This document shows positions 9,020-63,318 of a stretch of DNA of 64,000 nucleotides, piece by piece. Origin of the DNA: Phoronis australis (Eukaryota > Animalia > Phoronida); assembly GCA_002633005.1 (NCBI GenBank), contig NMRA01000262.1, positions 322,298 to 386,297 of the forward strand, written 5' to 3'. Within the stretch, counting starts at the first letter, position 1. Each line of letters starts with the position of its first letter. The notes beneath the pieces were generated by a model. It ran no database searches and had not been told where the DNA came from. It saw only the letters and a list, made by a program, of their open reading frames with translations. Position numbers and translations under genes: made by a program.

Positions 9020-9199
9020 AAATGAGCCCTGAGCTTATTACAGCATATCTCAATGCAAATCCAACTTTTTTGGAAAGTTACATATTATCAAATGTGTCAT
9101 GTGATCAGCTGGAAAGACTGCTACTTCGAAGGTCATTAATTGAAAAACAAATAACGGGAAAATGTGCCGAGAAAGCAGTGCAGACTTTGGATGTTTCTG
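9020..9199 (+). CDS. PDE10A: PDE10-like exon 1 in window ([34 protein letters not shown]...)
   Basis: ttccag acceptor ending 9019, G|gtaagt donor at 9200. Resembles the PDE10 N-terminal 'AYL..HP..L..FV' helix. ATG at 9022, but the acceptor implies an upstream exon. Confidence 0.8.
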
Positions 9200-33100: not shown

Positions 33101-36100
33101 CCCACAACCCTCTTGACCCACAACCTGTAGCAATAGATATATCTTTGCGCTTTTATACATGTTTCATAATCATATTATGTAGCTGAATGACTTTCCCATG
33201 AGACTTACCTACACGCAAACCTGCTCTGGCTGAAGTCTGGTGGTTAAAAAACAGAAAGTTATGTATAACATCACCTGAAATAGCAAATGGTGAGGGTGCT
33301 ACCATTGTCAAGTAAATAGTTCCATGAGTGGCTAACAATGGCCATGCAGTTTTACTAAACTTAGGGAGAACATGACGGGATATAATTTCACGTTTTTATT
33401 ATTTGCTTTCTGTTGTATATTCGTTTACAATATAGTCCATGTACCATTGAGTTAATTTTAGTTAACAGTTTTTTCAAACTAGTTACTGAAGAAATTACAT
33501 ATTTGCCATTTTCTCACATTCTCCCCCAAAAACTTGAATCTGCCATTCACTGAGGAGCAGATGAGAGGATTACACTTTGCTGGAAACGACATTTGTAACA
33601 ATGATAGGACTTTGATTTGATTTGGCTGCGTTGTTTTTTTTTTCTGTTTTTGGCTTTCAAACTTGCCGAATCGACTCTTAATTGCAGGGAAAAACCAATG
33701 GAGCTCACGGCCCGACTCGTTGGTCCTGCAAGTCAGCACTTGTTCTATGTTCAAACAGAGTCAAGCTTGTGTAGACTGGGCCAAGGGGGTTGTGGGCTGG
33801 GGGTCGAGGGGGTCATGGGTCAAGGGGGTTGTGGGTTGAGGGGTCGTGGGGTGTGGGGATCAAGTGGGTTTTAGTTCAATCCTGCATTTATCAACAATCA
33901 CTGCTTACACATGACCAGTGCAACTTTTTGACATGAATTCTGTTTTAGGTCCATATTCCAAGACATAGTCAGCATGGACACACTTATTATGAAAATTATG
34001 GTAAGTGAACATTTAGTCCAGACTATCAAATAAGTATTTCTTAAGTTTGAATTAAACAATGTGAATTGGGATGACTGGACATTAACCCACCTTTCATCAC
34101 AAGCAACATATACGCAGCTTTCAACACAAGAAACATTTTTTGTCTTTAACCACTCACTGTCATCATGGTGTTTAATTGTTTCTTAGTCAAAATAGGTGTG
34201 ACTTGGGCTTCAAACAATCTGACTGTTTGTCATTGCTAAAGACCATTCTGTATAATTTGGTTTGTCACGGCTTGCCATTTTATTCATCACACATGGTCTC
34301 AAGGGATAACAAACTGTTAGTTCTTTGTAAGACCTATATAAACTCATTTGAGTAAGTCAAGTCAAGACCATTTCTATAGTGGAAAGCAAGCCTATGAATG
34401 ATTTGTCAGAGTTGGAAACAAGATGGTGCTTGCTATATAACTGCAAGTTGCATATGTTTGTTATTATGTCATGATTTTTCCATAATTTGGTAACAAGCGG
34501 GTTACAAAAAGCCATACCCATTGTTGTTATGTTTACTTTTGTGGTGAGGGGCAAAATTTTTTTTATTGTTTCTTCTTTAGAAACTGGATGAATGTTTATA
34601 AAGTATTACGGCTCTATAAGTTTAATGGTAACAGGATGCCTTATTGTTAAATAACCTTTAAAATAAGTAGTAGACCCATAAACCTAATATTTTTAAAGTA
34701 ATTAATGATCACAGAATCTTGTGAATGAAATCAATGCCTAGTGATGATTGAAATATCATAATTGCGTTTTTTTTCTAAACCACTTTCCATGGGGATTGCC
34801 AAATTTTTTGCAATCACCCTCTTTCACCGGAAACTTGCAAAGTCCGTTTCTGTACTTAGAATTGATGTTTGTGGAAATAATATGACAATCTCCGTGAAAA
34901 GTAGATTATTTAAGAAACCCAATCACATCATTGTAAACTTGTGGGTATTATTCTAGTGCACGTGAAAAGACTCTTGATCAAGTGGATTTTTAAAATATAT
35001 ACTTGTGTGGAGCTACTACTATTAATATGTAGTCATTTCTTGGTAATGAGGTTGTATAGTTGTTGGTAGAGTTCTTGGTAATGAGGTTGTATAGTTGTTG
35101 GTAGAGTTCTTGGTAATGAGGTGGTATAGTTGTTGGTAGAGTTCTTGGTAATGAGGTTGTATAGTTGTTGGTAGAGTTCTTGCTCAATGTTGAAATATAT
35201 CAAATGGTCTTCATAGTCCTTTAAAGGTATTTAAGGGCTTGTTATCTTGAAAGTGTTTTAGTCATTTTGGCAGATTTTACCATCTCCAAAAAGTATTTTC
35301 AACCTCCTTAGTTGATTTTTATTAAAACGATATTATTAATAATAATTATTCAAATTGCAAGTGGGATGCTCTATGCAATGCAAAGACTGTGTGTCAGATT
35401 GTGGTTGAATTGTTGAATTAGTTTTATTTCCTACTCTGTTATCTTTGCTTATTGACAAATGGTTATTCTGGGGTTATGTGGATATTTTGATTAAAGTTAA
35501 AATGTATCAGAATAGAGAAGCAACAAAACGCTCCTTACTTAAGTCAGGACCTTTCTTAAGTCACCTTACTTAAGTCACCTTACTTAAGTCAGGTGACAGG
35601 TGAACTCACTGCATCAATCTTCTTCTTGTCATTTTCATTAATTTCATGTTTATTGACATCCGCTAAAGATTCAAAATTTGTTTTGTAGCAATTAAACTGT
35701 GCCAAATTTAATACAAAATGCCTTTGAAAAAGGTAACGTTTATGTGATATGAGTGAGAAATGCATAGTGCAGCAATAACACCATTGACATGTCTTCATAT
35801 TTCAACATAGAATTTTGCCCAAAAACTGGTGAATGCTGATCGGGCTTCCCTGTTTCTCTTGGATAACTCGACAAATGAGCTATTTGCACGGATATTTGAT
35901 GTGGGCAATGGGATTGCCCAGAGTGGAGATGACCAAGAAATAAGGTTCAATAGCATGCTCTCGTGTATACCTTCCTACACTCAGTACACTTGCCAAGCCT
36001 AACAACTAAGACAGAAATTGGCTTCCAATTTTAGCAATACAAGAAGCTGTCGCCTCATTTTCTCGAAAGTTCTTCTGAAACTCATCTTTTCCCACAAATA

Positions 36101-38854
36101 TGTTACAATTCCAGTTTTACCTCTGGCTCAGATACCATCTGAGCTTCAGGCTAACAAGACAAATTAAAATCATGCTCAGACTTTGTTAATGGTGAATGCA
36201 GTTGAAGATTGAACACCTTTTCAAAAGGTTGGCAAGTGTGTGTTTGTTGTATTGACCATCTGTCTGCACACACAGGGTCAATGCACATCAGTGTCATGAT
36301 TGTATTATTTTGACCCTACAGCCCACACCCTCATTGTTTTGGTAGTCATGACAACTCATCAGATGGGGCAAATGATGCTTGTTATCCTCCTGCAGATTAA
36401 GAGCCCACATGCACGTTTGTGCTTGTATGCCATTATATGCCATAAAGAATTTTTTCTTCAAGAATTATGATAAAGCAGAATTCAAAATTTAGTTGAGAAA
36501 ATCATGGGCCCATTAGGAACGCTCCGTAGGATTGAAGAATGAGTAGCCTCAAAGTAAAATGTGGGAATGATCAAATATTTGCAGAAAACGACAATAACTG
36601 CAGTGAATTGGGAAGAGCTTAATCCAACGGTTTTGAGCTGACAATGAGTATAAGGTGTGAACTACTGCACAAATTTTGCATCACAAAAATATGATGAATT
36701 TTGAATTGAAGTAAAAGTACTGATCTCCATAGCACCAGATAGCAGCAATAGTCAACAATCCCATATGATCAGAGCACATTGTGTTGTAAAAAAGTCTCGA
36801 TGTTATGCTTTGTGAAAACATGCCGCTATCAATCAGACCTCTTACCCCCCAAATTATTATTGTTTGTTTGTATGTTTTCAACAGAATTTTGCCAAAAAGT
36901 TAGTACATGCCGACAGAGCATCATTGTTCTTGGTGGATAAGCTAACAAGGGAACTCTATGCCAGAATATTTGATACCGGAAAACTGACCGATGAGTCGCA
37001 CAGTCCCAGTACTGAGCGCGAGATAAGGTTTGGCATCTTAGTGAATTTCTGCTTTCACTCTCAGTAATGTTTCCTACTTGGCTGATTTGTTTTATTGTAC
37101 CAACTATAAGTTTCCTCTTGATAACAAACCTACATTGTAACAATCCATTTCAACAGCACTGTGTGCTCTTAAATGCGCTGTGGTGGAAAATAAGCTTATT
37201 ATTTTAAACCTATGACTGTCTTTTGCTCCCATGTCTTTTGTTGTACTTGTGGCCTGCTTTAGTGATTTTCCTTTTTGTTGTTGTTGTTGTAGTGATGTTC
37301 TTTTTGCTTGCTCACTGCATTTTTTATTCGTTTGTAGTCAGGTAAGTGTAGTCTGAGTACTTTAAATATGACAAAATTTGTTTTAATTATTTCTGATACA
37401 GTCTCATTGCTAGTTTTAGGTTAATTTTTGTTGCAAATTTGTCATAGCTGCCGTCACTGCAATTTGTCATAGCTGCCGTGACTGCAATTTTTTTTTGTTA
37501 ATTATTAAATCACACAATTGGCAGGCTTTGCAATGTCCATCTGTTTTTGTGTAATGCCCTTATTGTGTGGAGCCTAACTCAACAGATGGCAGTCAAATTA
37601 TGCACTGACAGTCATGTCACTGGTTTGGAGATTTGAATCTCAGTATGTCTAATCTCTGACCCATTTCTTGTGTTTTAAAAAATACTCTTTATTTGGGTCA
37701 GATATTGTAGAATACAGTTGTGTCTTTTTGAAGTTTCCTGTTGCCATGGCGAAATTCATTGGCTTCGGCTTCTGCACAAAATAATTGCCAAAGTTTCTTA
37801 TAACAGTTTTCAACAACTATTCAGTACAAACATTTATTTCTGATGAGAAAATTGAAGAAAATATGGTTGAAGTCCTCCATAATGCTTGCCAAATAGGTCG
37901 AGATGAATTTCATTTATCTAAATGATTTGAATTAAAACTTTGTTTTTTGACGTAGGGCAGGTTTATACCAGCACGAATGAAATTGTAGTTACAATACTTT
38001 AAACACTCATGGCATTTTTTATAATGTTTTTATAATGTTTATTACGAAATCTTCGATACAATGAATATTCATAACCCAGAAAGCACCAAGAGGCATTATA
38101 TCTGGGTTAAAAAAGTACAAAGAAATCTATATACAATTATTTTACACAAAATAAGAAATCTATATACAATTATTTTACACAAATACATAAATTAAAAAAA
38201 AAACTGTTGTTAAGATTACAATGACACATGGTTACGAAAGTAAATAAATCATTTTCATACACATGTACACAATTCTATCCACTCACACAAAGAGATTTAA
38301 TATTATAAAGAAATTTCATGGCTATTCCTGGTTCATTATTTACAATATTCCACATGTAGCCTGTATGATTATCACTGGATTCAGTCGGATAACATGGATT
38401 TCATTCTATGCAACAAGTGATATTAATTCTCTGAGCATAGTCACTCATGGCTACTTTGTGTGCATTCAGATAAGGAAGGGTATATATTTAAGACTTACCT
38501 GTGACTTGTCCATGTAGGTTTCCTATGGATAAGGGTGTGGCAGGGTACGTGGCCTCTACTGGCGCTATACTCAACATACCTGATGCCTACGCTGATGACA
38601 GGTTTAACAGGTATGCAGCTGTTATCTATATAAAAAAATTCCAATATATTTTAATATTATCAACCTTTAAGAAAATAGCATGTGTATTTTTGTCAAGGAT
38701 GTCCATAAGAATTTCAATAACATATTGCAAAATGTTCGCCTGAGGCTATATGGAGTTGACAGCCGGAGTACGCTTTGAAGTTTTTAACACTGCCAAAGCA
38801 ACGTATGCAAGGTTGAGGAAAATCAGCATCTTGGAAATGTTTTTATGCACCCAC

Positions 38855-50800: not shown

Positions 50801-53800
50801 AATTGAATTAGGCTTTTTAGTATAGTAAAATTAATCTTGTAATGTCACCTAGCATGATGTGATTCAGCTTGCATTCCCGACACAAAGCATCAGTTGTGTC
50901 AACGACTCAAGCAATGGCTCAGAGTTTAGGGTCGGCCAACCCTCAAGTTTGAAAGTTGTGCATGTACCCATTGCCTGTGACTCGTGCTGGTAATAGAAAC
51001 TATACGAATTCTATCATGCTGACGAGTGTCATGAGATTGTTTTAATAGGAGTATGTCAGGTCTAATTAGATTTTTGTTTTTGCCAGCTTAAAAGAGGGTG
51101 AAATGCCACTAAAAGTCTTTGAAGTGATATTATTGCGCTGAAGTAAAATTTGTGCATGGAATCATAAGAATATCACCTGTTTGATTAAGAATTAGCCAAT
51201 ATTACTTTCCTTGTATTTATTGATTTGATAAGTATTTTTTGCAATTTAAAAAAATCTATAGTGAGTTTTTACTATTTTGTGGCTGTCCAAATGCCAAAAG
51301 AGCTAGACACACACAGTGATATTTCCATATTTTATATGTCCATTAAGGTATGATCAAGAGACTCTGGTCAAGTTCACGCTGACAATACGCAAGAACTACC
51401 GCACCGTGCCATATCACAATTGGGCTCATGCCTTCTCAGTGGCACATGCTATGTTCACAGTCATCAGGACCACCAAGAATGACTTCACACCTTTAGAGGT
51501 AGGAGTGAACACCAAGCTGCAGAGTTCATGTTACTTTTTAAATATAGACAAAATCTCATTTTGTGCAAGGTTTAAGATAAATGTCATGATCATTTAGGGT
51601 GTTTAAAATTTAAATAAACATCCACTTCTCAGCCTGGCGAGATGGGTGAAGATTGTGTAAACTTTTCTCAAAATTATGACAGAAATAGACTACAAAATCA
51701 GGTGATCAATTTTGTTTAAAAGTATTGACGATTTCAATAAAAAATGATATTTAGTTGTTAAGTCTTTTAAAACATCAGAGTTTGGTCAATATGTCTTGCA
51801 AATATTGACCCTGTTAGATGGTTCAAGTGCCCAACTACAAGTTAGAACAGATTAAATTTTTAGTACAATTTGTCTTTTCCTTAAAATAATTCTAACTAAA
51901 ATGAGACTTGTTAATGTTCATAAAAGACTGGTCTGTTTTAAAGTGGCGCTAAACTCATGCATTTTGTCAAAAAACAACGAAATTTTGATGTGATCTCTGG
52001 AAAGCCCTGCATGTGGTGACTTCTTCAGACTTTAAGCTATAGTCAGGTCACACACGACCTGCAGTTCCTTCATAACATTTTAGGTCACACACGACCTGCA
52101 GTTCCTTCATAACATTTCAGGTCACACACGACCTGCAGTTCCTTCATAACAATTCAGGTCACACACGACCTGCAGTTCCTTCATAACATTTCAGGTCACA
52201 CACGACCTGCAGTTCCTTCATAACATTTCAGGTCACACACGACCTGCAGTTCCTTCATAACATTTCAGGTCACACACGACCTGCAGTTCCTTCATAACAT
52301 TTCAGGTCACACACAACCTGCAGTTCCTTCATAACATTTCAGGTCACACACGACCTGCAGATCCTTCATAACATTTCAAGTCACACACGACATGCAGTTC
52401 CTTCATAACATTTCAGGTCACACATGACCTGCAGATCCTTCATAACATTTCAGGTCACACACGACCTGCAGATCCTTCATAACATTTGAAGTCACACACG
52501 ACCTGCAGTCCCTTCATAACATTTCAGGTCACACACGACCTGCAGATCCTTCATAACATTTCAGGTCACACACGACCTGCAGTTCCTTCATAACATTTCA
52601 GGTCACACACGACCTGCAGTTTCTTCATAACATTTCAGGTCACACACGACATGCGGTTCCTTCCTTTCATTTCAGGTCACACACGACCTGCAATTCTTTC
52701 ATAACATTTCAGGTCACACACGACCTGCAGTTCCTTCATAACATTTCAGGTCACACACGACCTTCCGGTTCCTTCATAACATTTCAGGTCACACACGACC
52801 TGCAGTTCCTTCATAACATTTCAGGTCACACACGACCTGCAGTTCCTTCATAACATTTTCAGGTCACACACGACTTGCAGTTCCTTTATAACATTTCAGG
52901 TCACGCACGACATGCGGTTCCTTTAACATTTCAGGTCACATACGACATGCGATTCCTTCATAACATTTCAGGTCACATACGACCTGCGGTTCCTTCATTA
53001 CATTTCAGGTCACTCACGGCCTGCGGTTCTTTCATAACATTTCAGGTCACAGACGACCTGCGGTTCCTTCATAACATTTCAGGTCACACACAACCTGCGG
53101 TTCCTTCATAACATTTCAAGTCTCACACGAAGTGCAGTTCCTTCATAACATTTCAGGTCACACACAACCTGCGGTTCCTTCATAACATTTCAGGTCACAC
53201 ACCACCTGCAGTTCCTTCCAATCCCACAAATCACACCTATTTTGACCAAGGAACGTTAACTTTACATCTATGTCATGATACTATGTGATTGAAATCAAAA
53301 CTGTTTTTGACAGCTGTGTATTGTTGTTTTTAATACTTGTGATGTCTATCACTGATTCAATATGATCTTCGATCAGTGTCACAATGAATAATGGGCCTAT
53401 GCATTTGGTAAGGGCAATCTCAGCTAGTCATGTTTTTGTTATTATAGCAGTCAAGGAACTATAGTGCCCGCTGAACGCTACTCTAATTTATTGTTCCCGT
53501 TTGTCAATTTACTGGAGAAACAAAAAGTCAAGATGTGGGCATTAAATGAAATGCAGCAAAATTGGGTTATGTGAGATTTCAGTTTGAACATGGAAATTCA
53601 ACCTAACCTGAAAATACGGTATTGTGGACCAAGTGCATCAATCCTACGCAAAATCAACGTCGTAATTGTTTGAGGTTTTCTGTTCTAATCTAGTACGCTT
53701 TGCCTTATACATGGATGACAGTTGTTTCATCCTGGTTTGTACTTGATGTCCCAGACATTAAAGTTATCAGATGAGTATGAACTCATAGTCTCCCTTAAAA

Positions 53801-56800
53801 TCTGAAGTTTTGAGTTGTCTCAGACTAGCTCAAATCTAATGGCCATCATGTAAAAACATGATCACATAATATAAAAAATAGAAGCTTATTCTAAATTTGG
53901 AATACTAATCTCAAAAATACTTTCAAATTCAATTTTCAAGATTCCATGTCCTGAAATTCATTTTACTTTCTTTTGCCTTACGCTAGAGCCTGGTGTTGTT
54001 CGTTGCCTGTCTCTGTCATGACCTGGATCACCGTGGCAAGACCAACGCGTTCATGGTAAAGAGTGCCTCCCCTCTGGCCGCCATTTACTCTACATCGACT
54101 ATGGAGCACCATCATTTCAACCAAACTGTCTCAATACTACAGCAGGATGGCCACAATGTGTTCCGATACTTGTCACCTCAAGAGTACAAGCAGGTCAGTG
54201 GATGGTTTTCTGTCTGTGATACTGCAGGGTAGCCAGGGGTGTGTTCCACAGTGCGAAACACTCAACTGGTCGCTTGCAGCCAAAATATTTGGCTTGTGTG
54301 AATTTCTCCATTTTTCTGGGCTATGCTAGTAAGGTTGTGAGCTTTCTCTCAACACACTTGCCTTTCATCTTGTCAAGCTTTCAATTAGAATCTTATTTCT
54401 AAGGAATGCACCTTGGTCTTCCTCTCTTGTGGCCATTAGAGCATTCTCATCACTATTGTACTTTTTCATGAATAAACTTCTTTTACCACAGGTTGTATTT
54501 ACATTCCCACACATTGCAATTCTTTTCTTAAAAATATATTTTTGCAATGTACGAATTTCAGTTCAAACTCTTGAACGAGCAAGAGTTAGGAAATGTGCTT
54601 TTAACTTAAAACTGTTGAAATGTATCAATACTGTGTAACAATACTGTGTAACAATACTGTGTATGTATATGTATCAATACTGTGTATCTGTATGTATCAA
54701 TACTGTGTATCTATATGTATCAGTACTGTGTATCTATAGTACATGAGGAAAAATGTGCTCTGCAGAATGCTTAATATGACTTTTGAGAAAAACATCATTT
54801 TCAGATTTATTCAAACTGACTGTGGAAAAAATAATAATTCTTAATCCTATTTTTCAAAGGCTCCCTGCTTAGAAATTTCATCATTGTATAATTTGCTTAC
54901 TGTTATTCTGTACAAGACAAGCCAACAGCAAAGAAAATAAACTTTTCTGTAATGTTATTTTTTGATGATTAATGTGTCCAAAGGGAAATTAACTTGCTTG
55001 CCATACTGTGTTCCAAATTAAAGACTACTGTATTCAAACAAAAATAATGACCAACATTGTCTTTTTTCGTTTTTCAAATGCTCACTGTATTGCCAAAATG
55101 TTAAAAGTTTCATACTAATATATAGTTTTCAAATTATCAATAATTGTGTTTGGACACTCTCGTTGCAAATTTTACTAAACTTTTGATAAAATGAAAGTTT
55201 AACTGTTCTGCAACATTGTTTTCTAATTTGAAGAAACTTCATATTCTCTTCTATTGTAAAAATCACGCCTGCTCCAAACTAGAAGAAACTAAATGTTTGC
55301 AACAGCAAATCAAACTGAGGGTCATATAGTTGAAGTTCCTGGACCAGTTCATATACTTTTGGTTGCAGTGTTCGCAGAGTTGGAAATGTTAAATAACTTT
55401 GTAAACTTTCCTTCTCTTCACCCCATTGTTTGTATGCCTTTAAGATAGCGAAATCATTTACAAAATTTTCAAGTAAAGTAAAGATTTTATTTTTACCTTA
55501 TGCATGCTTTGACAAGAGAAAACTGGACAGTGCTCCTAAAATCATAAAAATATGTTGGTTAAATTCAGAATTGGTCAATTCAGTTTTGTTTCTTACTATG
55601 AAGAATGAGCTTGTTTGCAAAGTCTCTGGTGGCATTTTTATTGTCCATCTTTCCAGAGAGAATATTATTTCACGACTATATAGCTATTCTCTAACACTGT
55701 ATTGTACCACAATTCTCCTACACTGTGCTGTACCACTATTCTCCTACACTGTGCTGTACCACTATTCTCCTACACTGTGCTGTACCACTATTCTCCTACA
55801 CTGTATTCTCCTACACTGTGTTGTACCACTGTTTTCCTACATTGTGCTGTACCACAATTCTCCTACACTGTGTTGTACCACTGTTTTCCTACATTGTGCT
55901 GTACCACTATTCTCCTACACTGTGCTGTACCACTATTCTCTAACACTGTGCTGTACCACTATTCTCCTACACTGTATTCTCCTACACTGTATTCTCCTAC
56001 ACTGTGTTGTACCACTATTCTCTAACACTGTGCTGTACCACTATTCTCTAACACTGTGCTGTACCACTATTCTCCTACACTGTATTCTCCTACACTGTGT
56101 TGTACCACTATTGTCTAACACTGTGCTGTACCACTATTCTCTAACACTGTGCTGTACCACTATTCTCCTACACTGTATTCTACACTGTATTCTCCTACAC
56201 TGTGTTGTACCACTATTCTCTAACACTGTGCTGTACCACTATTCTCTAACACTGTGCTGTACCACTATTCTCCTACACTGTATTCTCCTACACTGTATTC
56301 TCCTACACTGTGTTGTACCACTATTCTCTTACGCTGTCTTGTACCATGACTATTCTAGTAATAATAAACAATCTATTCACACCAACCCCTGGTCTCCTTT
56401 TCATCTCATGCGATGCATGATTTTTATCTGGTCCAGGTGTCATGAATGAAATAGTAAGTGTAAGCATTATAATTACAGAGAGTGTACACTACCATAATTC
56501 AACTCCCCATTTCTACAGGAGTTTTCATTGGTAGTCCATGGATATTCCTTATTGAAATTTAAAATATGTTTACTCTGAAAAATGAGAATGCTTTTGTTTA
56601 TTTTCAGGCACTTGGAAAAATCAAAGAGTGTATCTTAGCAACAGACCTGGCCTTATTCTTTGGGAACAGAGCAAAACTTAAGGAACTTGTTGATCAAAAG
56701 AAATTTGACCCTACAATACTGAATCACAGGTAAAAAAACAGCTGCAATTTAAAGTGTTAAGACATGCAATTAACCCACTTACTATCGCACTCATCTGATT

Positions 56801-59800
56801 TAAAGCCCAAGATGTATAAATTGAAAATGTCAAATGTCAGGATGTAGAGAAATTTCCCTGTTGAAATGAAGTACTCATACAAACTGAAAGCAACTTGCTT
56901 ATTTTCACACAAAATGACTGAAAACAAGATTTAGTGTTACTGCCAATTTCATAGCTGATCCCAAGTTATGCCAATGTCCACCAAACTTTGATGAGATATA
57001 GTTTGATCAATTTTTTTGAATGGAAACAAGAGACTTATCAGAATATTTGGTCTGTAGAATTTGGGACATTGGACATTCAGTACATAATTGTATACAAGTT
57101 GCTGACTAAGTTGTCTTTGGGAGGACATTATGTTCAAGTTGCTGACTTAGTTCTAGTTTTGAATCTGTTCTTTTATCATTTTTGCGTGTAGAAGGTTAGT
57201 GGAGGCCATATTGATGACTGGATGTGACCTGTGTGCAAGTACCAAACCCTGGGACATCCAATGCAATACTGTTAGCGTTATATTTGAGGAATTTTACCTC
57301 CAGGTAGAGATCAATTGCCATAGATTACTGTCAATGCATGAGTCACTGTAGTGAAGAGTAGAGTTGTAGAAACAGTTTTCTACTGCATTGGAGGTGGTTA
57401 GTCTCACCTCCATGTACAATAATACCTGCTATAGGTTGGCAAGGCAATGTATGGGTGTTGTGAGTGGTGTGAGCTGTAGTCTATTTCTCTGAAGCCTGTA
57501 GTGATTTCTATTCTGAATATTAGAAGAAAACATGGGTTTATAGACTCTTTAAATTGCTTTTTTGAATGATTGGTCTATTACATCACTTCATTGTCAAAAT
57601 AATTACATAATGAGACAGTGAGAGACATTCACTCAAGCAACTAAGGATGACAAAGAAGGACAATCAGGACAAGAAAAATTGTAATGTATTTTATAGTATT
57701 ATGATGGTTGTTCTTTTTATTGATATAGTTATTATAATGTTGAATTTAGATGGTTTACAATCATGGCACACAACTAAGAGTTAAGAGCAACATTGTACGA
57801 AACAAGACAAGGCATGCAATAGTGTCAGTGCAAATAATAAATATATTAATAGATAATAAAACTATAAAGGATATTTTCATCGTGTTTGGTAGGTTTATTC
57901 CAAAATACACGAATACACAAAACAGTAATAATAAGTAAATAATTAAAGTAACAAATAAGATAAGGACACACTACAGACACATGGTAATAGGAGCCTATCA
58001 AAGAACTTCCCTTCATTGCTCTGTGATGCTTTGTAGTGTCAAAAAGGTGTGCTCCATTGCACGTTTCAAATGTCTGACACATACCATCATTATTTTTCTT
58101 TTGCCATAGTCGATAAAAAACGAATGAAATTTTTGTCATCACCGACGATTATTATCACTGAGAAGTAGTTACTTGTGCACACTTTAAAACCAGTAATTTC
58201 TTTTTGTCTTCATTGTTTTATACTTTACAGTGACCTCAACACCATTACTCTGAAACTTGTTTCTTGTTTGTAAATGTTATCTTAGAACTCCATTTCTGTG
58301 TATTTCTATTAATGACTCATATTTTACTACCAATTATCAGATCAGAAAAGCATCGGCTATGAATGATTGCATTTTGTTGCAAGGTTAGATAATTGTTTGG
58401 AATTCAAAACCAACAAAGAACTGGGAAAATGACATTGCTTTCATGCTTCACAATATTTAAATTTAATTTTTTTTTCAAAATTATTCACCAGGTTCATACG
58501 TACACTCGCTATTTTGTTTCATGATTTTCCTTTCTCACTCTCAGTTGCTGCCTGTTTTCACAACCTATTTGGCTCACACTTTTCCACTCTACTTTAACTG
58601 GTAGAAGCCTTTCCCCGCTCTCCACCTGGCAATCTTGCTCAGAGTGAAAAGCTACACTTGGAGCAGATCTGCTCCTATTTTTTCAGTGTATGTCAGGGTC
58701 TTATACCATTATTGCTAGTGCATGCTTTGATCAGTTCTTTACATCCTGGGTCCAGATCTGTTCATAATTGCTAGTGCATCATGGGCTTAGATGAACTCAT
58801 TTACAGTACAAGCTAAAAGAAAGCAGACACCATTTCCACATCATGGCTATCAATTCCGCCTGCATTTTTTTCCCGCTGAACTCGAACTGGAAATAACACA
58901 CCACGATGCATAATAACAGCTGTAATCTGTCATCATAACTCTAATGACATCATACCGGTCCATTACTTTGAACAACCAAGTACTTATGAGGCAACAACTC
59001 AACTACCAAAGTACATAATGGCACACTGCCCAATTACAAGATTTTTGCCCAGTGACAATCATAAAAGTTTAACTATACCTTTCAATCACGCAGAGTTTGG
59101 GTATTTTCTGTTAGCTGTTAGCGGACTGAGACCAATGCCTACGTACAGCTGAATTATGAAAAAAAAAATTTTACCGTAATCAGTTTGCAAAATACTTGCA
59201 TGGGATAAATATTTCTGCACGATTAGAGCAAAATTGTTCTCATGAACATTCTGATTCTGTCGCGTATTTTGTAAGCAAGACCATGTACCTTAAATGATGA
59301 ATTTGCGAAGCCTCAAAGTACTGCACAGGGCATCGGAATATGTTAAATTGTGCCCTTTAGAAAAAGATAACAATGTTACTAGGTGTTGTAATACCATAAC
59401 AAATAACAAAAAACAAAACATCAAATACAATCCTTTCTTCATGTGCTCAAAATTATCTTCATGAGACCAGGGACGGAAAGACATCAAATAATTAATAAAG
59501 CAACCGAAAGAATGAACTGTAGACCAATGAAAGCGGAAGGCGGAGATTTTTGTGGAAATTGTACATAAGAGTGTGGGCCTAAATCAGCGCTCTGGTGTTG
59601 TGTCAATATCATGAACAACATGAAATCAGTAGCACAGTACATGTACATGAATCAGTTTTAATTCGATGTAACTTGAGACAGAAACGCGGACTTTTGCATG
59701 TATAAAGTAGCAATGAGTGACCTAATTACAGTGTAACTGTCGCTTGCATTGGGATTCATCTTTTAAAGTTAACTTGAGGTTTGTTCACGATTGATTAGAT

Positions 59801-62800
59801 CAGAAATATAGGAACAACTAGCTATTCCACTTGAATTAAACATGACATGTCTACTCATACATGACATGTCTACTCATACATGACATGTCTACTCATACAT
59901 GACATGTCTACTCATACATGACATGTGTACACTTATACATGACATGTCTATTCATACATGACATGTCTACTCATACAGTTAATTCCGCTAAACATGACAT
60001 TTCTACTCATACAGTGCAGTTTCGCTAAATTATGTCAACTGAAATAGCATGGAATTTTATCTGCTCAGCAGGCCTGACTTGGAATACCTTTGTTTTTTCC
60101 GTTTACTTTTGGCTTGAACTGTATTAACTAGTGCATGCTGGGATCAGATCTGTTCACATTACTAAGAGTGCATATTGTAGATTCATCACGGCTTGGAATT
60201 TTCCTCTTTTAAGAGGATTACCTCTTTTTTGATTTCCACTTGTTTCCAGTTTCCCCTTTTTTTGTTTTTTTTTTCATTTTGACTTGATTCACTCAAAAAT
60301 GTTTATTTCAGTTAATTTTTACATCACAAAAATATCTCCATCGCACTATCCTATTTATTTGTGGAACGATACATCACCTGTCCTCGTTTTTGTCATTGGT
60401 CATTCCAAGCCCTGATTCATAATAGCTATAGTGCATGTTCTTGGGATCATATCTGTCGTGTAGCAGGATCAGATCTTTTCACATATCTGACTAGTGCATG
60501 ATGGGATCTAGGTTGCATCCTATAGATACAAGGCTGTAGTCACGTGATAGTGTAATCATGTGCTTCCCTTTTAATGGATGGCAACATTTTGATGGTGAGG
60601 AAGTACATGATAACAATTCTCTCACAAGAAACTTAATTGGTCTCAGGAACGCAATCCAGATCTGTTCACATAACTAGGGGATGATGAGGTCATATCTGCT
60701 CATATAACTAGTGCATGATGAAGTCATATCTGTTCATATAACTAGTGCATGATGAGATCAGACCTCTTCATATAGCTAGTGCATGCTTGTCGTTGTTGCT
60801 ATCGTCGTAACTGTTGTCATTCTAGAGAGATGTTGATGTACCACAGTATGACTGCTGCTGATCTTTGCTCAATGTATAAACCATGGAACCTCCAGGTCAA
60901 GTTAGTTAACATCATTATGGAAGAGTTCTGGCAACAGGTAATGCATGTTGTAGCAACACAATATGGTAGTTATATAACCATTAAAGCCATTGGAAATTAA
61001 TGTTTTTTTCTAAATGTTGTTATGTGTAGCTTATTGTGAGATAGCCTGTAGCCTGGCTGCTACATGAAGTAGTGACATTTTGTGAGCTTATTACATGCCA
61101 TCTGTTTATCATGTTGCCTAATGATGGAACATAAAATCATTCATTTGAATTTGTTCACAATGTCTTCATGATGACATCCATTTTTATTTTCTGATAACTT
61201 TCAACATAAACAAGCAGATTCTCCTGGAACAGTACCCAAACTTTTGCTTCTTATTTTCTTCCCAGTAAAATCAGGGACTTCAACTTTTGTAGACTGTCAA
61301 TTTTTAGTATTAAGCTTATGCTGATGAATGTTTTTCAATCCCTGAGCGTTTTTGGCGGCATGCCAGCAGTTTTCCCAAATGTTCCTTGCATTAGTCAAGT
61401 GAAATAATCTATGTTTGTAAAGATGGCAAAATTTGACAAGGTTAAGCTGGTCCATCCTACACAGCGATACTGGAATCTTGCTGTATTTACCCAGGATGTT
61501 ATAAACATCCGTCGGAACATTTGCTCTCTCCTTTTCGTGCCATTGGAATTACACTTATTTGTTGTTGTCTGATTCTTTTCAAGTTTTATTCGTAATTCCA
61601 ATGCTAATAAAGTATTACTGCTGTGTTATAGGCTGCATCTCCGATGTGAGAAATTTTAATAAACTGGACAGTCAAATGCCCATGTATACGTGATGTGATA
61701 TTCTTTGCCTTACTGACATCAATGAGAGACACAAAAATGTGCATGATTTCCAAAAAAGAGGTCACAGGCGTTTTTATCTCTGGGACAAATGAGAGTTCTA
61801 TTGCCCAACTGAGACTAAACCTTACAAATATGAATTCAAGCACTTTTACAGAAGGTGTTGGAAATGTTCCCCATCGGCATCTAAGCACAATTTAATTCGC
61901 ACAGCTCTATGGAATACATTAGTCAAGAATGAAATTGACAAACTACTGAAAAAACTCTTATAGGCACATTGAGTGCTACATGAAGTTTTGAGCCCCAAGC
62001 TCAAGCAGAAAAAATTATTACGAAATGTTTGTGGCCAAGATGTCTAAGGAGATTCACCTTGTATTCAAACTTTTGTATGTTTTTTCCACAAATATAAGCA
62101 GTGCACTATGTTAGTGTGAGTCACAAATACTTATGTTCACTTACAACCATTTCAGGGTGATGAGGAGAAGACACAAGGAATCCAACCTATAGCTATGATG
62201 GACAGAGCCAAGGCACACCAGCTTCCTCAGAGCCAGGTACTGTTTTAACAAGCACTTCCTGCAATACCACAGTGCTCTTTTGATTCTGCAGTATTTACCC
62301 ACAAACCTGTGCATTTGCTGGGCACTTCCCTCACAGCTGTGCACTGCTGCTGTGTTAATAACTATAGTTTGCCATTTGTCATCATTCTTACGCCAATAAA
62401 ATTTTAAGTGAGTTGCAATACAAACTCAAGTCCCTGGGATCCACACACATAGTTACACTAGAACAACTTGCACTAGTGCAACTTACCATGGGCGGCGCAG
62501 CACTGAAAAAAGTGGGGACTATCAGCCCCCCTGTGGTACACCGCCCATAGACCATGGGTGCCAGAGCACTGAAAAAAGTGGGACTATAGCCCCCAGCCCC
62601 CCTATGGTGCGCCGCCCATGCTTACCCCTCTTTTAAGTGGAGCTTCCACATATATCCAATAACTGGGCCAGGTGCCTTCATCTATTCTCACTCAAGTCAA
62701 GGTAAAAATAATTCAAATTAAGTTAGTGTGTAGGTAGTTAATAGAGAAGATATTCTGGACACGTCCTAGTAAGTGCACACCACCAGGACAAGTAATGCCA

Positions 62801-63318
62801 TGGTCAAGGTCAGTGTTGCTGGTTTTGTATTCCAGGTTGGTTTCATCCTTGGAATCTGCCTACCTTGTTATGAGCTGATGGCCGAAGTATTACCTGGTTC
62901 TGAACCTATGGCAGAAGGCGCAAGGTATATATGACAGTTAAAGTGCATAAAGTAACTCTTGATTTAAATCACTTGCAGTAATTATTAGACTCAAACTTTT
63001 CCTTGATCAAAATTTATTTCTGGACTGATGTATTACTTCATTATAACTTGAGACCCCCATGGCTTGACCAGTTGACTTGTCATGGCATGTAATCATGCCC
63101 CGTGCTCTTGGTCTCAAATAGCACCTGTCATTTTTCTAAACCATTTCACACATTTAATTCTGCAGCTAACTTACTTTCGTAGGTTTGAAATTTGACACCT
63201 GCGTGAATTCAATTTGTGTATCGAGGTCTGCCATGTTGTTTGCAGTGCTAATTTAAAGAAATGGAAAGAACTTGCTGAATCACAACCGGAGAAAGAGGAA
63301 GACTCACAGACCAGCTGA
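9020..63318 (+). CDS. PDE10A: Spliced gene: PDE10A-like dual-GAF 3',5'-cyclic nucleotide phosphodiesterase (24 exon positions, 2 of them mutually exclusive pairs)
   Basis: Exons joined by hand via GT-AG sites give one open frame of 2310 nt including stop from ATG 9022 with exon 12a (2319 nt with 12b). It contains the GAF signature ([20 protein letters not shown]; VNK..F...DE), catalytic motifs YHNWAH, HDLDHRG, EHHH, ATDL, xDL and invariant Gln (PQSQVGF). The GAF-B and linker sequence resembles vertebrate PDE10A as recalled; orthology was not tested. Confidence 0.9.
10461..10674. repeat. 19-bp minisatellite, about 11 copies
   Basis: Unit TTGTGACAAGTTACTTCTC. Confidence 0.95.
11341..11458 (-). 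mobile_element. tRNA-derived SINE head fragment
   Basis: Minus strand shows A-box-like TGGCCTGGTTGA and B-box GGTTCAAGTCC followed by GCCCTTGAGCC. No complete tRNA cloverleaf. Confidence 0.6.
11740..11780 (+). CDS. PDE10A: exon 2 ([14 protein letters not shown])
   Basis: gttttgtag acceptor, AAA|gtaagt donor; phase 1 to 0 fits neighbours. Confidence 0.75.
12448..12559 (+). CDS. PDE10A: exon 3 ([37 protein letters not shown]), start of GAF-A
   Basis: ttctgcag acceptor, CAG|gtaact donor; phase 0 to 1. Confidence 0.85.
13115..13292. repeat. 39-bp minisatellite, about 4.5 copies
   Basis: Unit TGGCCACGACCCTGACTTCACATAAAAATCTGACTCTGG. Confidence 0.93.
13580..13985 (-). mobile_element. Penelope-like retroelement remnant (GIY-YIG endonuclease fragment)
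   Basis: ORF 13693-13926: VVYEFVC..C...YIGRT....RL..H...G.I..H is a GIY-YIG motif of the PLE type; frame broken downstream. Confidence 0.7.
15262..15465 (+). pseudogene. Degenerate THAP-like zinc-finger fragment, probable DNA transposon remnant
   Basis: CCVVDAC-x50-CSEN with internal H.FP, W and I.R residues matches the THAP C2CH layout, but the final His is replaced by Asn. Confidence 0.45.
16621..18610. mobile_element. Putative non-autonomous TIR element with AAATGTAACA subterminal repeats
   Basis: GGTGATACCATGTAAAATGTAACAATTT at left versus AAATTGTTACATTTGACAGTGTATCACC at right; ATGTAAC/GTTACAT motifs cluster at both ends. Confidence 0.5.
17596..18097. mobile_element. Diverged foldback (palindromic) element of about 500 bp, nested in the previous element
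   Basis: Arm pairs such as GAGCAATGCGCTCTTTGTC / GACAAAGAGTGCATTGCTC and GCACAGGTGAGCGCATGGTG / CACCATGCGGTCACCTGTGC. Confidence 0.75.
18810..19215 (-). mobile_element. Degenerate Penelope-like retroelement 3' remnant
   Basis: Hammerhead motif plus an upstream decayed 'EAI......(stop)DSG' tract resembling the GIY-YIG C-terminal EAI..LNRD.G segment. Confidence 0.4.
18815..18860 (-). ncRNA. Minimal type I hammerhead ribozyme motif (Penelope-like element type)
   Basis: Minus strand reads ACTT-CTGAAGA-T-GATGTT-gaataaat-GACACC-GAAAC-AT-GTC-AAGT: CUGANGA and GAAA cores, stem I ACTT/AAGT, stem II with one mismatch, palindromic stem III ACATGT, GUC cleavage triplet. Confidence 0.65.
19509..19688. 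repeat. 87-bp perfect tandem duplication upstream of exon 4
   Basis: CAAATGGCCCTTGAGTGATGGG...TAATCGAATACT at 19509 and 19596. Confidence 0.9.
19791..19840 (+). CDS. PDE10A: exon 4 ([17 protein letters not shown]), GAF-A
   Basis: tttcttttag acceptor, GAG|gtaagc donor; GAF 'AD...LYL.D' strand; phase 1 to 0. Confidence 0.88.
20435..21389. mobile_element. Non-autonomous Mutator (MULE)-like element with 9-bp TSD
   Basis: Termini GGATTGTTCTAGAACCC... and ...GGGTTTTAGAACAACC with CGACCC subterminal repeats; exact TSD AATATTCAT at 20426-20434 and 21390-21398. Confidence 0.85.
21523..22615. mobile_element. Foldback element of about 1.1 kb (arms about 480 bp), Harbinger-like termini
   Basis: GCCCTTTCATATTACCGT / ACGGTAATATGAAAGGCC termini; internal arm pairs such as AAATGTTCCCAAATTGTCAC / GTGACAATTTGGGAACATTT; TAA/TTA flanks. 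Confidence 0.85.
22869..22900 (+). CDS. PDE10A: exon 5, 32-nt micro-exon ([10 protein letters not shown])
   Basis: Long pyrimidine tract with ccag acceptor, AA|gtgagt donor; supplies the phase 0 to 2 change needed between exons 4 and 6. Confidence 0.75.
23867..23966 (+). CDS. PDE10A: exon 6 ([33 protein letters not shown]), GAF-A
   Basis: ctttcag acceptor, GGG|gtgagt donor; GAF 'G.TV.AYVA.T...L.V.D' motif. Confidence 0.9.
24348..24441 (+). CDS. PDE10A: exon 7 ([32 protein letters not shown]), GAF-A
   Basis: ttttcag acceptor, G|gtaagt donor; 'D.RFP.G...SVL..PI' motif. Confidence 0.9.
25143..25410. repeat. 26-bp minisatellite (about 7 copies) running into a degenerate SINE-like tail
   Basis: Unit GGAGACCTTACTCAAGGGTCTGGGTC. 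The last copy continues CTCAAGGG...TTGAACCC...AAGCCAC, like the 11341-11458 element. Confidence 0.8.
25910..25968 (+). CDS. PDE10A: exon 8 ([20 protein letters not shown]), GAF-A
   Basis: ccttacag acceptor, GAG|gtattt donor; phase 1 to 0. Confidence 0.88.
27112..27286. repeat. 41-bp minisatellite, about 4 copies
   Basis: Unit CATTTCTGAGATGTACTGTTCCTAGGTTAGCCAAACTTGGA. Confidence 0.93.
27753..27956. repeat. Imperfect hairpin of about 200 bp (small MITE-like foldback)
   Basis: AGCAAAATAAATTAAAA...ATCCTCATTG pairs with CAATGAGGAC...TTTTAATTTATTTTGCT. Confidence 0.75.
29060..29392. repeat. 33-bp minisatellite, about 10 copies
   Basis: Unit CTACCAAGTGTCATTTCATGCACCAAGCAAGCC. Confidence 0.95.
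29946..29996 (+). CDS. PDE10A: exon 9 ([17 protein letters not shown]), end of GAF-A
   Basis: acag acceptor, GAG|gtacag donor; 51 nt, phase 0-0. Confidence 0.88.
30200..30330 (+). mobile_element. Degenerate LINE fragment (C-terminal to the RT domain)
   Basis: Translates [20 protein letters not shown], resembling the 'FCK.LL.V...T.N.A...ELG' segment of non-LTR retrotransposons. Confidence 0.3.
32433..32491 (+). CDS. PDE10A: exon 10 ([20 protein letters not shown]), inter-GAF helix
   Basis: gttgtag acceptor, AA|gtaagt donor; 'KQ..LN.FLL.V.K' motif. Confidence 0.9.
32658..32772. repeat. 18-bp minisatellite, about 6 copies
   Basis: Unit GTTAGACCTATTATTACC. Confidence 0.93.
33038..33882. mobile_element. 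Second MULE-like non-autonomous element of the same TIR family, 9-bp TSD
   Basis: GGATTGTTCTAAACTCCC... and ...GGGTTTTAGTTCAATCC termini; TSD TGCATATAT / TGCATTTAT (1 mismatch). Confidence 0.8.
33949..34000 (+). CDS. PDE10A: exon 11 ([17 protein letters not shown])
   Basis: gttttag acceptor, ATG|gtaagt donor; phase 2 to 0. Confidence 0.9.
35036..35182. repeat. 35-bp minisatellite, about 4 copies
   Basis: Unit TTCTTGGTAATGAGGTTGTATAGTTGTTGGTAGAG. Confidence 0.93.
35811..35944 (+). CDS. PDE10A: exon 12a, alternative GAF-B exon ([45 protein letters not shown])
   Basis: catag acceptor, AG|gttcaa donor; 134 nt, phase 0 to 2, open frame; paralogous to 12b. Confidence 0.85.
36885..37027 (+). CDS. 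PDE10A: exon 12b, alternative GAF-B exon ([48 protein letters not shown])
   Basis: tttcaacag acceptor, AG|gtttgg donor; 143 nt, phase 0 to 2, open frame; paralogous to 12a. Confidence 0.85.
38518..38610 (+). CDS. PDE10A: exon 13 ([31 protein letters not shown]), GAF-B
   Basis: catgtag acceptor, AG|gtatgc donor; canonical GAF-B core. Confidence 0.95.
38840..41073 (+). mobile_element. Helentron/HINE-like composite element: (GT)n near the 5' end, degenerate internal tandem modules, 3' hairpin
   Basis: T-run start, (GT)n at 38858-38885, recurring modules GATTTCAATGAAACTTGACACA...CTGCAGCACCTCCTAGTGG, terminal hairpin CTATGCAACATGGGGGCAT/ATGCCTCCATGTTGCATAG then CTCTTGTT. Confidence 0.55.
41370..41438 (+). 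CDS. PDE10A: exon 14 ([22 protein letters not shown]), GAF-B
   Basis: tttgcag acceptor, AA|gtaagt donor; phase 2-2. Confidence 0.95.
43451..45068 (+). mobile_element. CpG-rich Helentron-associated (HINE/DINE-1-like) element
   Basis: 5' subterminal ACTTGGCGGAATTC with adjacent inverted copy GAATTCCGACAAGT; 3' subTIR TTCGCCAAGT (45031-45040), then hairpin CGCTC-ctcc-GAGCG and a T-run. Confidence 0.7.
45255..45955. mobile_element. Young 701-bp foldback MITE with arms of about 280 bp and 4-bp TSD GACA
   Basis: GGCGCTAGTCGGATATAATGGACCCTAACTTATTCC... versus ...GGAATAAGTTAGGGTCTATTATATCTGACTAGTGCC; GACA at 45251-45254 and 45956-45959. Confidence 0.9.
47622..47736 (+). CDS. PDE10A: exon 15 ([38 protein letters not shown]), GAF-B NKxFxDE motif
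   Basis: ttttttcag acceptor, AAG|gtaagt donor. Confidence 0.95.
48774..49053 (+). repeat. 4 x 70-bp tandem repeat spanning the intron 15/exon 16 boundary
   Basis: Unit TGCTTTAATTCATACCCATTTGTAG|TTATATGACAAAATCAGGAGATC(G/A)GAGCAAAAGTACAAGGTAGCT. Confidence 0.97.
49009..49148 (+). CDS. PDE10A: exon 16 ([47 protein letters not shown]), GAF-B/catalytic linker
   Basis: atttgtag acceptor (last of four tandem copies), AG|gtaagg donor; 'Y..IR.SE..Y.V..E.LSYH' motif. Confidence 0.88.
49206..49526. repeat. 44/47-bp minisatellite, about 7 copies
   Basis: Unit TTGTAGTGACTGGTCATTCTAGCTT(CTT)TGATGATGAATTCTGGTTG. Confidence 0.93.
50041..50512. mobile_element. hAT-like MITE
   Basis: Termini CAGTGTTTGAA / TTCGAATGCTG, GCTGGCCC subterminal repeats, degenerate 8-bp TSD CTTTTGTG / CTTATTTG. 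Confidence 0.55.
50559..50654 (+). CDS. PDE10A: exon 17 ([32 protein letters not shown])
   Basis: ttccag acceptor; donor AG|gtagga at 50655, with an alternative in-frame AA|gtatag at 50649. Confidence 0.82.
51348..51498 (+). CDS. PDE10A: exon 18 ([50 protein letters not shown]), catalytic domain
   Basis: YHNWxH metal/catalytic motif; AAG-type acceptor, GAG|gtagga donor. Confidence 0.93.
52043..53217. repeat. 37-bp satellite, about 32 copies, each with an internal hairpin CAGGTC-acacac-GACCTG
   Basis: Unit TCAGGTCACACACGACCTGCAGTTCCTTCATAACATT; no unique spacers. Confidence 0.97.
53987..54193 (+). CDS. PDE10A: exon 19 ([69 protein letters not shown])
   Basis: Class I PDE signature HDLDHRG.TN; ctag acceptor, CAG|gtcagt donor; 207 nt, phase 0-0. 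Confidence 0.97.
55685..56350. repeat. Compound 26/15-bp minisatellite
   Basis: Units ACACTGTGCTGTACCACTATTCTCCT and ACACTGTATTCTCCT interleaved; explains the 339-aa ORF. Confidence 0.93.
56608..56729 (+). CDS. PDE10A: exon 20 ([41 protein letters not shown])
   Basis: ILATDL motif; ttttcag acceptor, AG|gtaaaa donor; phase 0 to 2. Confidence 0.95.
57192..57303 (+). CDS. PDE10A: exon 21a, alternative catalytic exon ([37 protein letters not shown])
   Basis: gtgtag acceptor, CAG|gtagag donor; 112 nt, phase 2 to 0; MTxxDL..KPW..EEF motif. Confidence 0.88.
59841..60012. repeat. 19-bp minisatellite, about 8 copies
   Basis: Unit CATGACATGTCTACTCATA. Confidence 0.9.
60657..60786 (+). repeat. 34-bp degenerate tandem repeat just upstream of the exon 21b acceptor, with dispersed copies further upstream
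   Basis: CTAGTGCATGATGA(A/G)GTCATATCTGTTCATATAA at 60674, 60708, 60742, 60776; related copies near 58715-58790, 60128-60175 and 60428-60510. Confidence 0.8.
60826..60937 (+). CDS. PDE10A: exon 21b, alternative catalytic exon ([37 protein letters not shown])
   Basis: ttctag acceptor, CAG|gtaatg donor; 112 nt, same length and phase as 21a; same motif intact. Confidence 0.85.
62156..62236 (+). CDS. PDE10A: exon 22 ([27 protein letters not shown]), includes invariant Gln
   Basis: tttcag acceptor, CAG|gtactg donor; 'GD.E...G..PI.MMDR' motif. Confidence 0.95.
62487..62620. mobile_element. 134-bp dimeric mini-element with CATGGGCGGCG termini and 5-bp TSD CTTAC
   Basis: CATGGGCGGCGCA...TGCGCCGCCCATG; CTTAC at 62482-62486 and 62621-62625; AGCACTGAAAAAAGTGGGGACTAT occurs twice internally. 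Confidence 0.75.
62836..62924 (+). CDS. PDE10A: exon 23 ([29 protein letters not shown])
   Basis: ttccag acceptor, AG|gtatat donor; 'Q|VGF....C.PCY' motif. Confidence 0.93.
63246..63318 (+). CDS. PDE10A: exon 24, terminal coding exon ([23 protein letters not shown])
   Basis: tttgcag acceptor; 'NL..W' final catalytic helix; TGA at 63316-63318. Confidence 0.88.

Follow-up and report, generated by a model that had tools for sequence, protein, structure and literature searches.

The exon 21 pair in a phosphodiesterase gene of Phoronis australis

We analysed a 64,000-nucleotide (nt) stretch of the Phoronis australis genome (assembly GCA_002633005.1, contig NMRA01000262.1, positions 322,298 to 386,297 of the forward strand), referred to here as the window and numbered from its first letter. 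It carries a plus-strand gene for a cyclic-nucleotide phosphodiesterase (PDE), which contains two diverged versions, 21a and 21b, of one exon of the catalytic domain. Joined together, the exons from position 9020 to 63318 form an uninterrupted reading frame of 742-768 codons, the length varying with the exon choice tested. The exon numbers 20 to 23 and the names 21a and 21b are labels taken over from an initial annotation of the window.

The window exons carry an intact set of the metal-binding His and Asp residues, the invariant Gln and the hydrophobic clamp that mark class I phosphodiesterases, and GAF-bearing relatives align across positions 19790-47739 (tblastn), placing tandem GAF domains N-terminal of the catalytic domain. 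Over 330 residues of the constitutive exons the nearest of the proteins searched, all named pde-5, were those of Lingula (77% identity), Lineus (76%) and Tubulanus (74%), and identity to proteins named pde-5 or PDE10 ranged from 69 to 77%. Each exon 21 taken alone matched PDE6, PDE5 and PDE10A chains, with PDE6 and PDE5 ranked first. P0066, the closest full-length relative used, matched PDE10A catalytic domains in isolation at about 295 bits and those of PDE5 at about 240; full-length PDE5, PDE2 and PDE6 chains outrank the PDE10A domains for this protein because their GAF domains are included. By way of this relative, we assign the gene to the PDE10/pde-5 family, with a catalytic domain nearer to PDE10A than to PDE5. 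The pde-5 gene of Caenorhabditis elegans is itself described as a PDE10 orthologue (PMC12346295).

Exons 21a and 21b are both bounded by AG and GT, run from phase 2 to phase 0 and are equal in length at 112 nt, with identity at 15 of 37 residues and 61 of 112 nt (54% of the DNA). The coordinates, length, phases and residue identity given in the initial annotation were all re-derived as stated. A profile of this 37-residue slot, taken from relatives, recovered only 21a and 21b among the 2966 stop-to-stop segments of the window (E values 1.2e-23 and 1.6e-22; next 0.13), and the recovery of exactly two copies indicates duplication, not chance resemblance. Neither a third copy of exon 21 nor a second copy of exon 22 was found by profile search of the 64-kb window.

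In a test of reading frames, either exon 21 alone reads through to the natural stop. Inclusion of both exons brings a stop inside 21b and omission of both a stop inside exon 22, with later junctions lying downstream of these stops. The intron between the two exons measures 3522 nt, which rules out steric clash, so that reading frame, together with decay of wrongly spliced transcripts, would be the likely means of enforcement. A search for docking-site RNA pairing around the pair returned nine short AT-rich inverted pairs, none of them convincing. At the start of 21a (57192-57195) there is a tandem acceptor, whose second AG, 3 nt downstream, would drop one residue in frame. Being adjacent, homologous, equal in length and phase, and each compatible with one productive frame, 21a and 21b are, to judge by their sequence, tandem-duplicated mutually exclusive exons (Table 1), and their splicing likely yields two versions of the enzyme.

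Table 1. Exons of the phosphodiesterase gene located in the window
Feature	Position	Strand	Description	Evidence
Constitutive catalytic-domain exon	51348..51498	+	First metal-binding His motif	tblastn with relatives, splice sites, open frame
Constitutive catalytic-domain exon	53987..54193	+	His-Asp metal motif and H-loop	tblastn, splice sites, open frame
Exon 20	56608..56729	+	122 nt, phase 2 end; shared upstream partner of 21a and 21b	Splice sites, open frame
Exon 21a	57192..57303	+	112 nt, ancestral-like 'a' type	Splice sites, slot profile, frame, tree
Exon 21b	60826..60937	+	112 nt, derived 'b' type, observed in Spiralia only	Slot profile, tree, splice sites
Exon 22	62156..62236	+	81 nt; M-loop, with the invariant Gln at its end; one copy in window
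Exon 23	62836..62924	+	Carries second clamp Phe	tblastn with relatives
Last coding exon	63246..63318	+	Runs to stop codon	Open frame
GAF-B alternative exon, first copy	35811..35944	+	134 nt	tblastn, frame test
GAF-B alternative exon, second copy	36885..37027	+	143 nt	tblastn, frame test
Duplicated 51-nt exon, first copy	26546..26596	+	End of GAF-A; phase 0-0	Splice sites
Duplicated 51-nt exon, second copy	29946..29996	+		Splice sites, relatives' isoforms

Distribution of the pair in related proteins

Relatives were read from protein cluster listings of up to 15 members each, and the counts below cover the proteins listed. A search with 21b gave eight candidates, from oysters, an annelid, a nemertean and three further proteins. 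Two different single-slot proteins were identified under 22 labels, and for 13 of these there are whole proteins that differ only in the 37-residue slot. The 13 slot-only pairs consist of nine spiralian pairs of an a and a b form (Crassostrea virginica, Magallana angulata, Saccostrea echinata, Argopecten, Mercenaria, Haliotis rufescens, Patella caerulea, Lineus and Tubulanus), three ambulacrarian pairs (two Asterias and one Ptychodera) and one rotifer pair. In M. gigas, Mytilus edulis and Pecten the paired proteins agree fully over the flanks (150 residues upstream and 27 downstream) and differ elsewhere too, and two rotifer pairs have one flank residue different. The a and b proteins of Lingula lie on two contigs and differ also in exon 22, and are thus weaker evidence. 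Amphioxus and arthropod isoforms had a single slot version among those listed. Because their flanks differ, we set aside the pairs from Nucella, Adineta ricciae and Rotaria sp. as paralogues.

Several proteins additionally record the arrangement of the two exons. One Bulinus model carries a and then b in tandem; in the oyster protein P0010, a is followed by a tail that corresponds to an out-of-frame reading of b (all 28 of 28 residues can be co-encoded, against none of 2000 shuffles), indicating the same exon order as in the window; and the tails of Asterias P0363 and P0365 correspond to a second copy following an a-like one (12 of 12). The tail of Tubulanus P0068 gave no fit to an out-of-frame second copy, and P0368 and P0379 are models that skip the slot. 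Intron-free contigs join each type to its neighbours, the a type in P0108 (918 residues, 3368 nt) and the b type in P0006 (909 residues, 3298 nt), P0105 and P0109. The window's own copies find close counterparts of their type, 21a being identical at 29 of 37 residues to the a copy of Lineus (P0205) and 21b at 32 of 37 to P0001 of the annelid Paralvinella. That the pair is an assembly artefact or a paralogous fragment is scarcely credible, with copies just 54% identical in DNA and with the same two types, in the same a-then-b order, in independent assemblies.

Constraint on the two exons and their origin

Across 13 spiralian pairs, the mean identity over 37 residues was 23.9 between a copies and 26.4 between b copies, as against 19.2 between the a and b copies of one species. 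Own-type identity over nine species was 66.7% for 21a and 68.2% for 21b; for the constitutive exons 18, 19, 20, 22 and 23 over the same nine species it was 71, 83, 57, 61 and 70%. Between 21a and 21b the proportions of synonymous and nonsynonymous differences were 0.67 and 0.41, and 4 of 13 shared degenerate codons were identical. Both exons are as conserved as their constitutive neighbours and under long-term constraint, and type-specific conservation extends over four phyla.

These data bear directly on whether either exon could be a relic in Phoronis, dead or almost silent, or the pair merely a device that throttles expression through unproductive splicing. Relatives do have models with both exons or with neither, and the a form is rare among the listed isoforms. 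Nevertheless, each exon has an unbroken frame and canonical splice sites, no catalytic residue has been lost from either, and the two match the constitutive exons in conservation across phyla. Synonymous sites between them are near saturation, yet 15 residues have been kept. We consider such a relic or throttle very unlikely.

A slot tree was calculated from 57 rows drawn from 112 database peptides and the window exons, over 37 columns and with no outgroup; its bootstrap was unsettled (0.983), and the Bulinus a copy is absent from it. The b copies, including 21b, formed one clade (21 of the 57 rows, all spiralian; support 97/98), which also holds both rotifer versions, and six ambulacrarian second copies formed a separate clade (95/94). 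The a copies were unresolved among arthropod, cnidarian, placozoan and amphioxus sequences, the a type being present in all four of these groups, and the vertebrate PDE10A row was a long branch. For the spiralian b and the ambulacrarian second copies, an approximately unbiased test comparing a single with separate origins gave p = 0.427, rejecting neither. The b-type motif was found in 45 of 52 spiralian labels and in none of 52 other named labels, with just one or two proteins each behind the seven spiralian labels that lack it; both types were identified in 14 spiralian labels. The pair is old, with a duplication that would predate the split between rotifers and lophotrochozoans, and the keeping of two versions across molluscs, nemerteans and brachiopods makes it likely that two enzyme forms are spliced.

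Counts at exon residues 16 and 31 would be circular if copies were typed by those residues. We accordingly used types taken from the tree, which draws on all columns and gives 29 a rows and 21 b rows. Typing by identity to the window exons, with the key columns masked, agreed in 11 of 12 species.

We additionally noted lineage-specific histories of the slot. Echinoderms and hemichordates have their own second version (P0361/P0366, P0367/P0136 and P0377/P0125), with Phe or Tyr in place of a conserved Trp, and in Ptychodera and Saccoglossus this version has lost the equivalent of PDE5A Gln775; it may be a better candidate for a change of specificity than the spiralian pair. Bdelloid rotifers have two slot versions, both within the b clade (P0148/P0278, P0292/P0160 and P0174/P0307), and the a type was not seen among the proteins listed, suggesting that a was lost and b duplicated anew. 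In Patella, the a and b copies (P0235/P0240 and P0087) are unusually alike (23 of 37 residues), with N-terminal residues in common, which may reflect gene conversion between the duplicates.

Pocket residues encoded by exon 21

By match to the full-length chain 9lss (query residues 4-35 to 756-787), exon residue 12 is the metal-ligand Asp D764 of PDE5A, and exon residues 15 and 31 are hence A767 and A783; the PDE10A numbering of D674, I692, Y693 and F696 fits the offsets in the sturgeon PDE10A P0151. The PDE4D counterparts of the latter two exon residues we take to be N321 and M337. A published table shows Asn and Met at these offsets (PMC5617230). The mapping onto PDE10A, PDE5A and PDE4D proposed at the outset was right. 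We number positions below from the metal-ligand Asp (D).

Supplements S3 and S4 of the same source give 15 specificity positions across 24 rows (PMC5617230), seven of which lie in exon 21: D+3, D+4, D+11, D+15, D+18, D+19 and D+22. The window exons 21a and 21b differ at three of these, with Ala and Ser at D+3, Ser and Met at D+4, and Phe and Met at D+19, and are alike at the other four (Gln, Val, Ile and Phe). Two of the differences called in the initial annotation are stable by type: at D+4 (V678), Met occurs in 19 of the 21 b copies, against 2 of the 29 a copies, and at D+19 (Y693), Met occurs in 20 of 21 b copies and no a copy, the a copies having 24 Phe, 4 Tyr and 1 Ile. The reported Ala/Ser difference at D+3 (S677) holds in the window and is not a fixed one, as b copies have 11 Ser and 10 Ala and 27 of 29 a copies have Ala. 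D+5 (T679) is type-specific, as had been suggested, with Tyr or Phe in 19 of 21 b copies, and appears in neither published pocket list. Two sites had been missed. At D+14 (T688/I778), a pocket residue in S3, Thr is present in 25 of 29 a copies and none of 21 b copies; and at D+11 (T685/Q775) a Gln is shared by 28 of 29 a copies, 20 of 21 b copies and 107 of the 112 distinct slot peptides.

The remaining features of the pocket are common to both exons: the metal Asp, whose retention had been correctly noted, the purine clamp Ile, Val at 779, Phe786 and the Gln775 equivalent. Asp, Ile and Phe of the slot are invariant in all 50 a and b rows. The swap would therefore spare the metal site, the clamp and the Gln network and remodel the pocket wall. 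AlphaFold models of the a and b isoforms of Tubulanus (mean predicted local distance difference test scores 73 and 70, and about 79-91 across the slot, residues 736-772) match PDE10A catalytic domains, with template-modelling scores to 2oun of 0.89 and 0.91. In this comparison at the level of the fold, the slot lies on two helices, which carry the Zn-ligand Asp and the first clamp residue, and on the loop between them.

The equivalent of Gln775 would, according to the glutamine-switch literature, hold the invariant Gln in the cyclic GMP (cGMP) pose, and in PDE10A the invariant Gln is fixed by Tyr693. The pairing of Tyr693 with Thr685 that distinguishes the vertebrate PDE10A pocket is absent from the window, where 21a has Phe and 21b Met at the former position and both have Gln at the latter. 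The PDE10A way of fixing the invariant Gln is thus missing from both exons. The selectivity pocket of PDE10A, which many inhibitors exploit, is also lined by Y693 (PMC12982385). The pattern typical of the PDE4, PDE7 and PDE8 enzymes specific for cyclic AMP (cAMP), with Asn at D+3, a supporting Tyr or Asp and Pro at D+4, was likewise not found: Asn at D+3, present in 10 of the 11 cAMP-specific table rows (PMC5617230), occurs in none of the 112 slot peptides, all of which have Ala or Ser, and at the supporting position, which lies outside exon 21, the Asp is replaced in the window by Ser. Of the 24 table rows, only those of PDE5 and PDE6 have Gln at position 775 (PMC5617230). That both forms share this Gln speaks for an unchanged core recognition, and since this PDE5/6-type residue is kept and the cAMP-type Asn is absent, both would be cGMP-leaning or dual.

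A further alternative is that exon choice acts as a true specificity switch, with one isoform preferring cGMP and the other cAMP or both. The concentration of seven of the 15 specificity positions in one exon, three of which differ in the window in addition to T688/I778, is in keeping with this, as is the state of D+3, where window b has Ser like human PDE10 and window a has Ala like PDE5, PDE6 and PDE11; the long retention of both copies likewise implies distinct roles. However, Ser at D+3 is found in just 11 of 21 b copies, the cAMP-type Asn and the Asp at the supporting position are lacking, and the Gln775 equivalent, Val 779, the clamp Ile and Phe786 are common to both exons. A switch of this kind is decidedly unlikely. 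The initial proposal that exon choice could alter cAMP/cGMP preference, the Michaelis constant (Km) or inhibitor sensitivity survives as regards the swap of pocket residues, although a flip of nucleotide preference is less likely than tuning, given the shared Gln775 equivalent and clamp.

Other alternative exons of the gene

We identified two further duplicated exons in the window (Table 1). For the pair in GAF-B, described as the nucleotide-binding GAF domain of mammalian PDE10 (PMC12346295), the frame test gives a premature stop when both copies are used or neither. Of 77 labels, 6 showed two versions of this exon: Babylonia, whose versions look like paralogues, and Tubulanus, Lineus, Haliotis, Patella and Pomacea, each among its isoforms. 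The 51-nt exon at the end of GAF-A is usable alone or with its twin, and Tubulanus isoforms have each copy alone and both together; Saccostrea models also use one or both. A third AG-GT 51-mer, at 30733-30783, bears no resemblance to the 51-nt slot.

Such exons elsewhere in the gene suggest another role for the pair, in which catalytic constants would be much alike in the two isoforms and the difference would lie in regulation or partners, through allosteric coupling to the GAF domains and the H- and M-loops, dimer contacts, binding proteins or stability. The second exclusive pair in GAF-B and the duplicated 51-nt exon fit this explanation, as do the type-specific exon residues 4, 17, 35 and 36, which lie outside the published pocket lists, and residues of mutually exclusive exons often cluster at interaction and allosteric sites (PMC7954323). 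Yet the strictest type-specific columns of exon 21 include three pocket positions (exon residues 16, 26 and 31), and we regard a difference in regulation or partners alone as unlikely.

Exon 22 is present in the window in its Gln form only. In molluscs, an annelid and a brachiopod it is duplicated (P0001, P0002 versus P0053, P0092, and P0089 versus P0270), and one of the copies ends in Glu in place of the invariant Gln. Oyster isoforms show each copy, Paralvinella and Pinctada models carry both in tandem, and most molluscs have the Glu form alone among the proteins listed. Lineus has two Gln-ending versions, and Periplaneta models carry two copies in tandem. In PDE9, changing the invariant Gln to Glu raised the Km for cGMP about 25-fold and lowered selectivity from 337 to 29 (PMC3069055).

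A bolder proposal would combine these exons into a splice-programmable active site, in which the choice of exon 21, together with the Gln or Glu form of exon 22 in molluscs and annelids, switches between a cGMP-preferring and a cAMP-preferring or dual enzyme, the exon for helices 13-14 having been duplicated either once in the protostome-deuterostome ancestor or independently in Spiralia, Ambulacraria and rotifers. We hold this to be unlikely; if true, a splice-programmable PDE10 would let the glutamine-switch model, which is disputed, be tested in a natural setting.

Tandem repeats were also observed near several exons. Four 70-bp copies at 48773-49053 (99% match) take in the start of the exon at 49009, with its acceptor and first codons, and so create three decoy acceptors. 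Minisatellite arrays are visible in the introns before exon 20 (about 55700-56350) and before 21b (59840-60020).

Interpretation of the exon 21 pair

The explanation that we consider probable is that 21a and 21b are diverged copies whose splicing gives two active PDE10 isoforms tuned in affinity, turnover or inhibitor response, while both prefer one and the same nucleotide, probably cGMP, or accept both. The pair would have arisen by tandem duplication of an exon long ago, exclusivity being enforced by frame and wrong combinations presumably removed by nonsense-mediated decay. The replacement of Ser by Met at the V678 position, of Thr by Leu at T688 and of Phe by Met at Y693 would then reshape the purine pocket wall and the side (selectivity) pocket, which in turn may shift Km, turnover number, product or cross-inhibition and the half-maximal inhibitory concentrations of drugs. 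We assume that exon choice is tissue-specific. The pair itself is real, old and conserved; its consequence for the enzyme is predicted.

Several points weigh against this explanation. The relatives' isoforms come from predicted gene models, among which are some with both exons and some with neither, so that their presence is no proof of abundance, and the a form is the rare one among the listed models of Tubulanus (1 of 13) and Lineus (1 of 15). Predicted models at NCBI are usually built on RNA-seq. A protein search with exon 20 gave a best identity of 82% among the matches listed (34 of 44 candidates), none of them from Phoronis. Patella is the one species of 12 whose typing disagrees when the key columns are masked, and its b copy is nearer to the window's 21a than to 21b, contrary to a clean division into two types. 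The type-specific residues outside the pocket lists also count here, as do the 15 table positions, which compared by eye match human PDE5 at eight (a) and seven (b) and PDE10 at seven (a) and eight (b), so near to equal that the table does not settle specificity. Even for C. elegans PDE-5, substrate specificity is given as unmeasured in PMC12346295. Finally, the PDE9 substitution E406A hardly changed selectivity (ratio 280 versus 337), in a study that argues against the glutamine switch (PMC3069055); this outcome weakens residue-based prediction in either direction.

Known splice variants of PDEs mostly alter the N-terminus and leave the catalytic domain alone. PDE2 is an example of such N-terminal variation (PMC13095499). 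Here, part of the substrate pocket is swapped within one gene, and both versions have been kept across several phyla. The a and b isoforms are matched natural pairs, three or four pocket residues apart on an identical scaffold, and are suited to testing how PDEs distinguish cAMP from cGMP, which is still disputed (PMC3069055). We further predict that PDE10-selective drugs that depend on Tyr693 act differently on invertebrate PDE10, and perhaps between its isoforms. These differences are relevant to work on cyclic-nucleotide signalling in molluscs, annelids and echinoderms.

Comparison with known systems

The window gene shares with vertebrate PDE10A and invertebrate pde-5 the combination of tandem GAF domains and a class I catalytic domain. 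The vertebrate PDE10A type is marked by hydrolysis of both cAMP and cGMP and by cAMP binding to GAF-B. Within this family, Thr685 and Tyr693 of sturgeon PDE10A correspond in the window exons to Gln and to Phe or Met, respectively, and C. elegans pde-5 has one isoform listed (PMC12346295), against the two slot versions identified here. PDE5A and PDE6 resemble the window exons in having Gln at 775 and lacking the cAMP-type Asn, but are non-orthologous by the whole catalytic domain, and PDE5A has Ala at 779 and 783, where the window has Val at 779 and a bulky Phe or Met at 783.

The swapping of active-site exons has precedent, and the view in the initial annotation that it is unusual for an enzyme holds only in part. 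Nine mutually exclusive exon events at catalytic residues and 235 at small-molecule sites are reported in PMC7954323, whose main text never mentions phosphodiesterase, and KHK-A and KHK-C differ in fructose affinity (PMC7360681). A full-text literature search, with most subscription journals outside its coverage, found no active-site exon swap in a PDE, and the relatives' isoforms sit unremarked in automated annotations.

Mutually exclusive exons enforced by nonsense-mediated decay are known from FGFR2 (IIIb and IIIc). These resemble 21a and 21b in having a length that is not a multiple of three and a premature stop on wrong use, the frame alone being demonstrated here. Exons 3A and 3C of KHK, and the alternative exons of PKM1/PKM2, fly CRMP and CG42249, alter affinity, allostery or metal and catalytic residues, but in other folds. 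The PDE10 pair is set apart from these systems, in that a Zn ligand and one half of the purine clamp lie in the exchanged piece, several phyla have the pair in common, and the slot is doubled in three animal groups.

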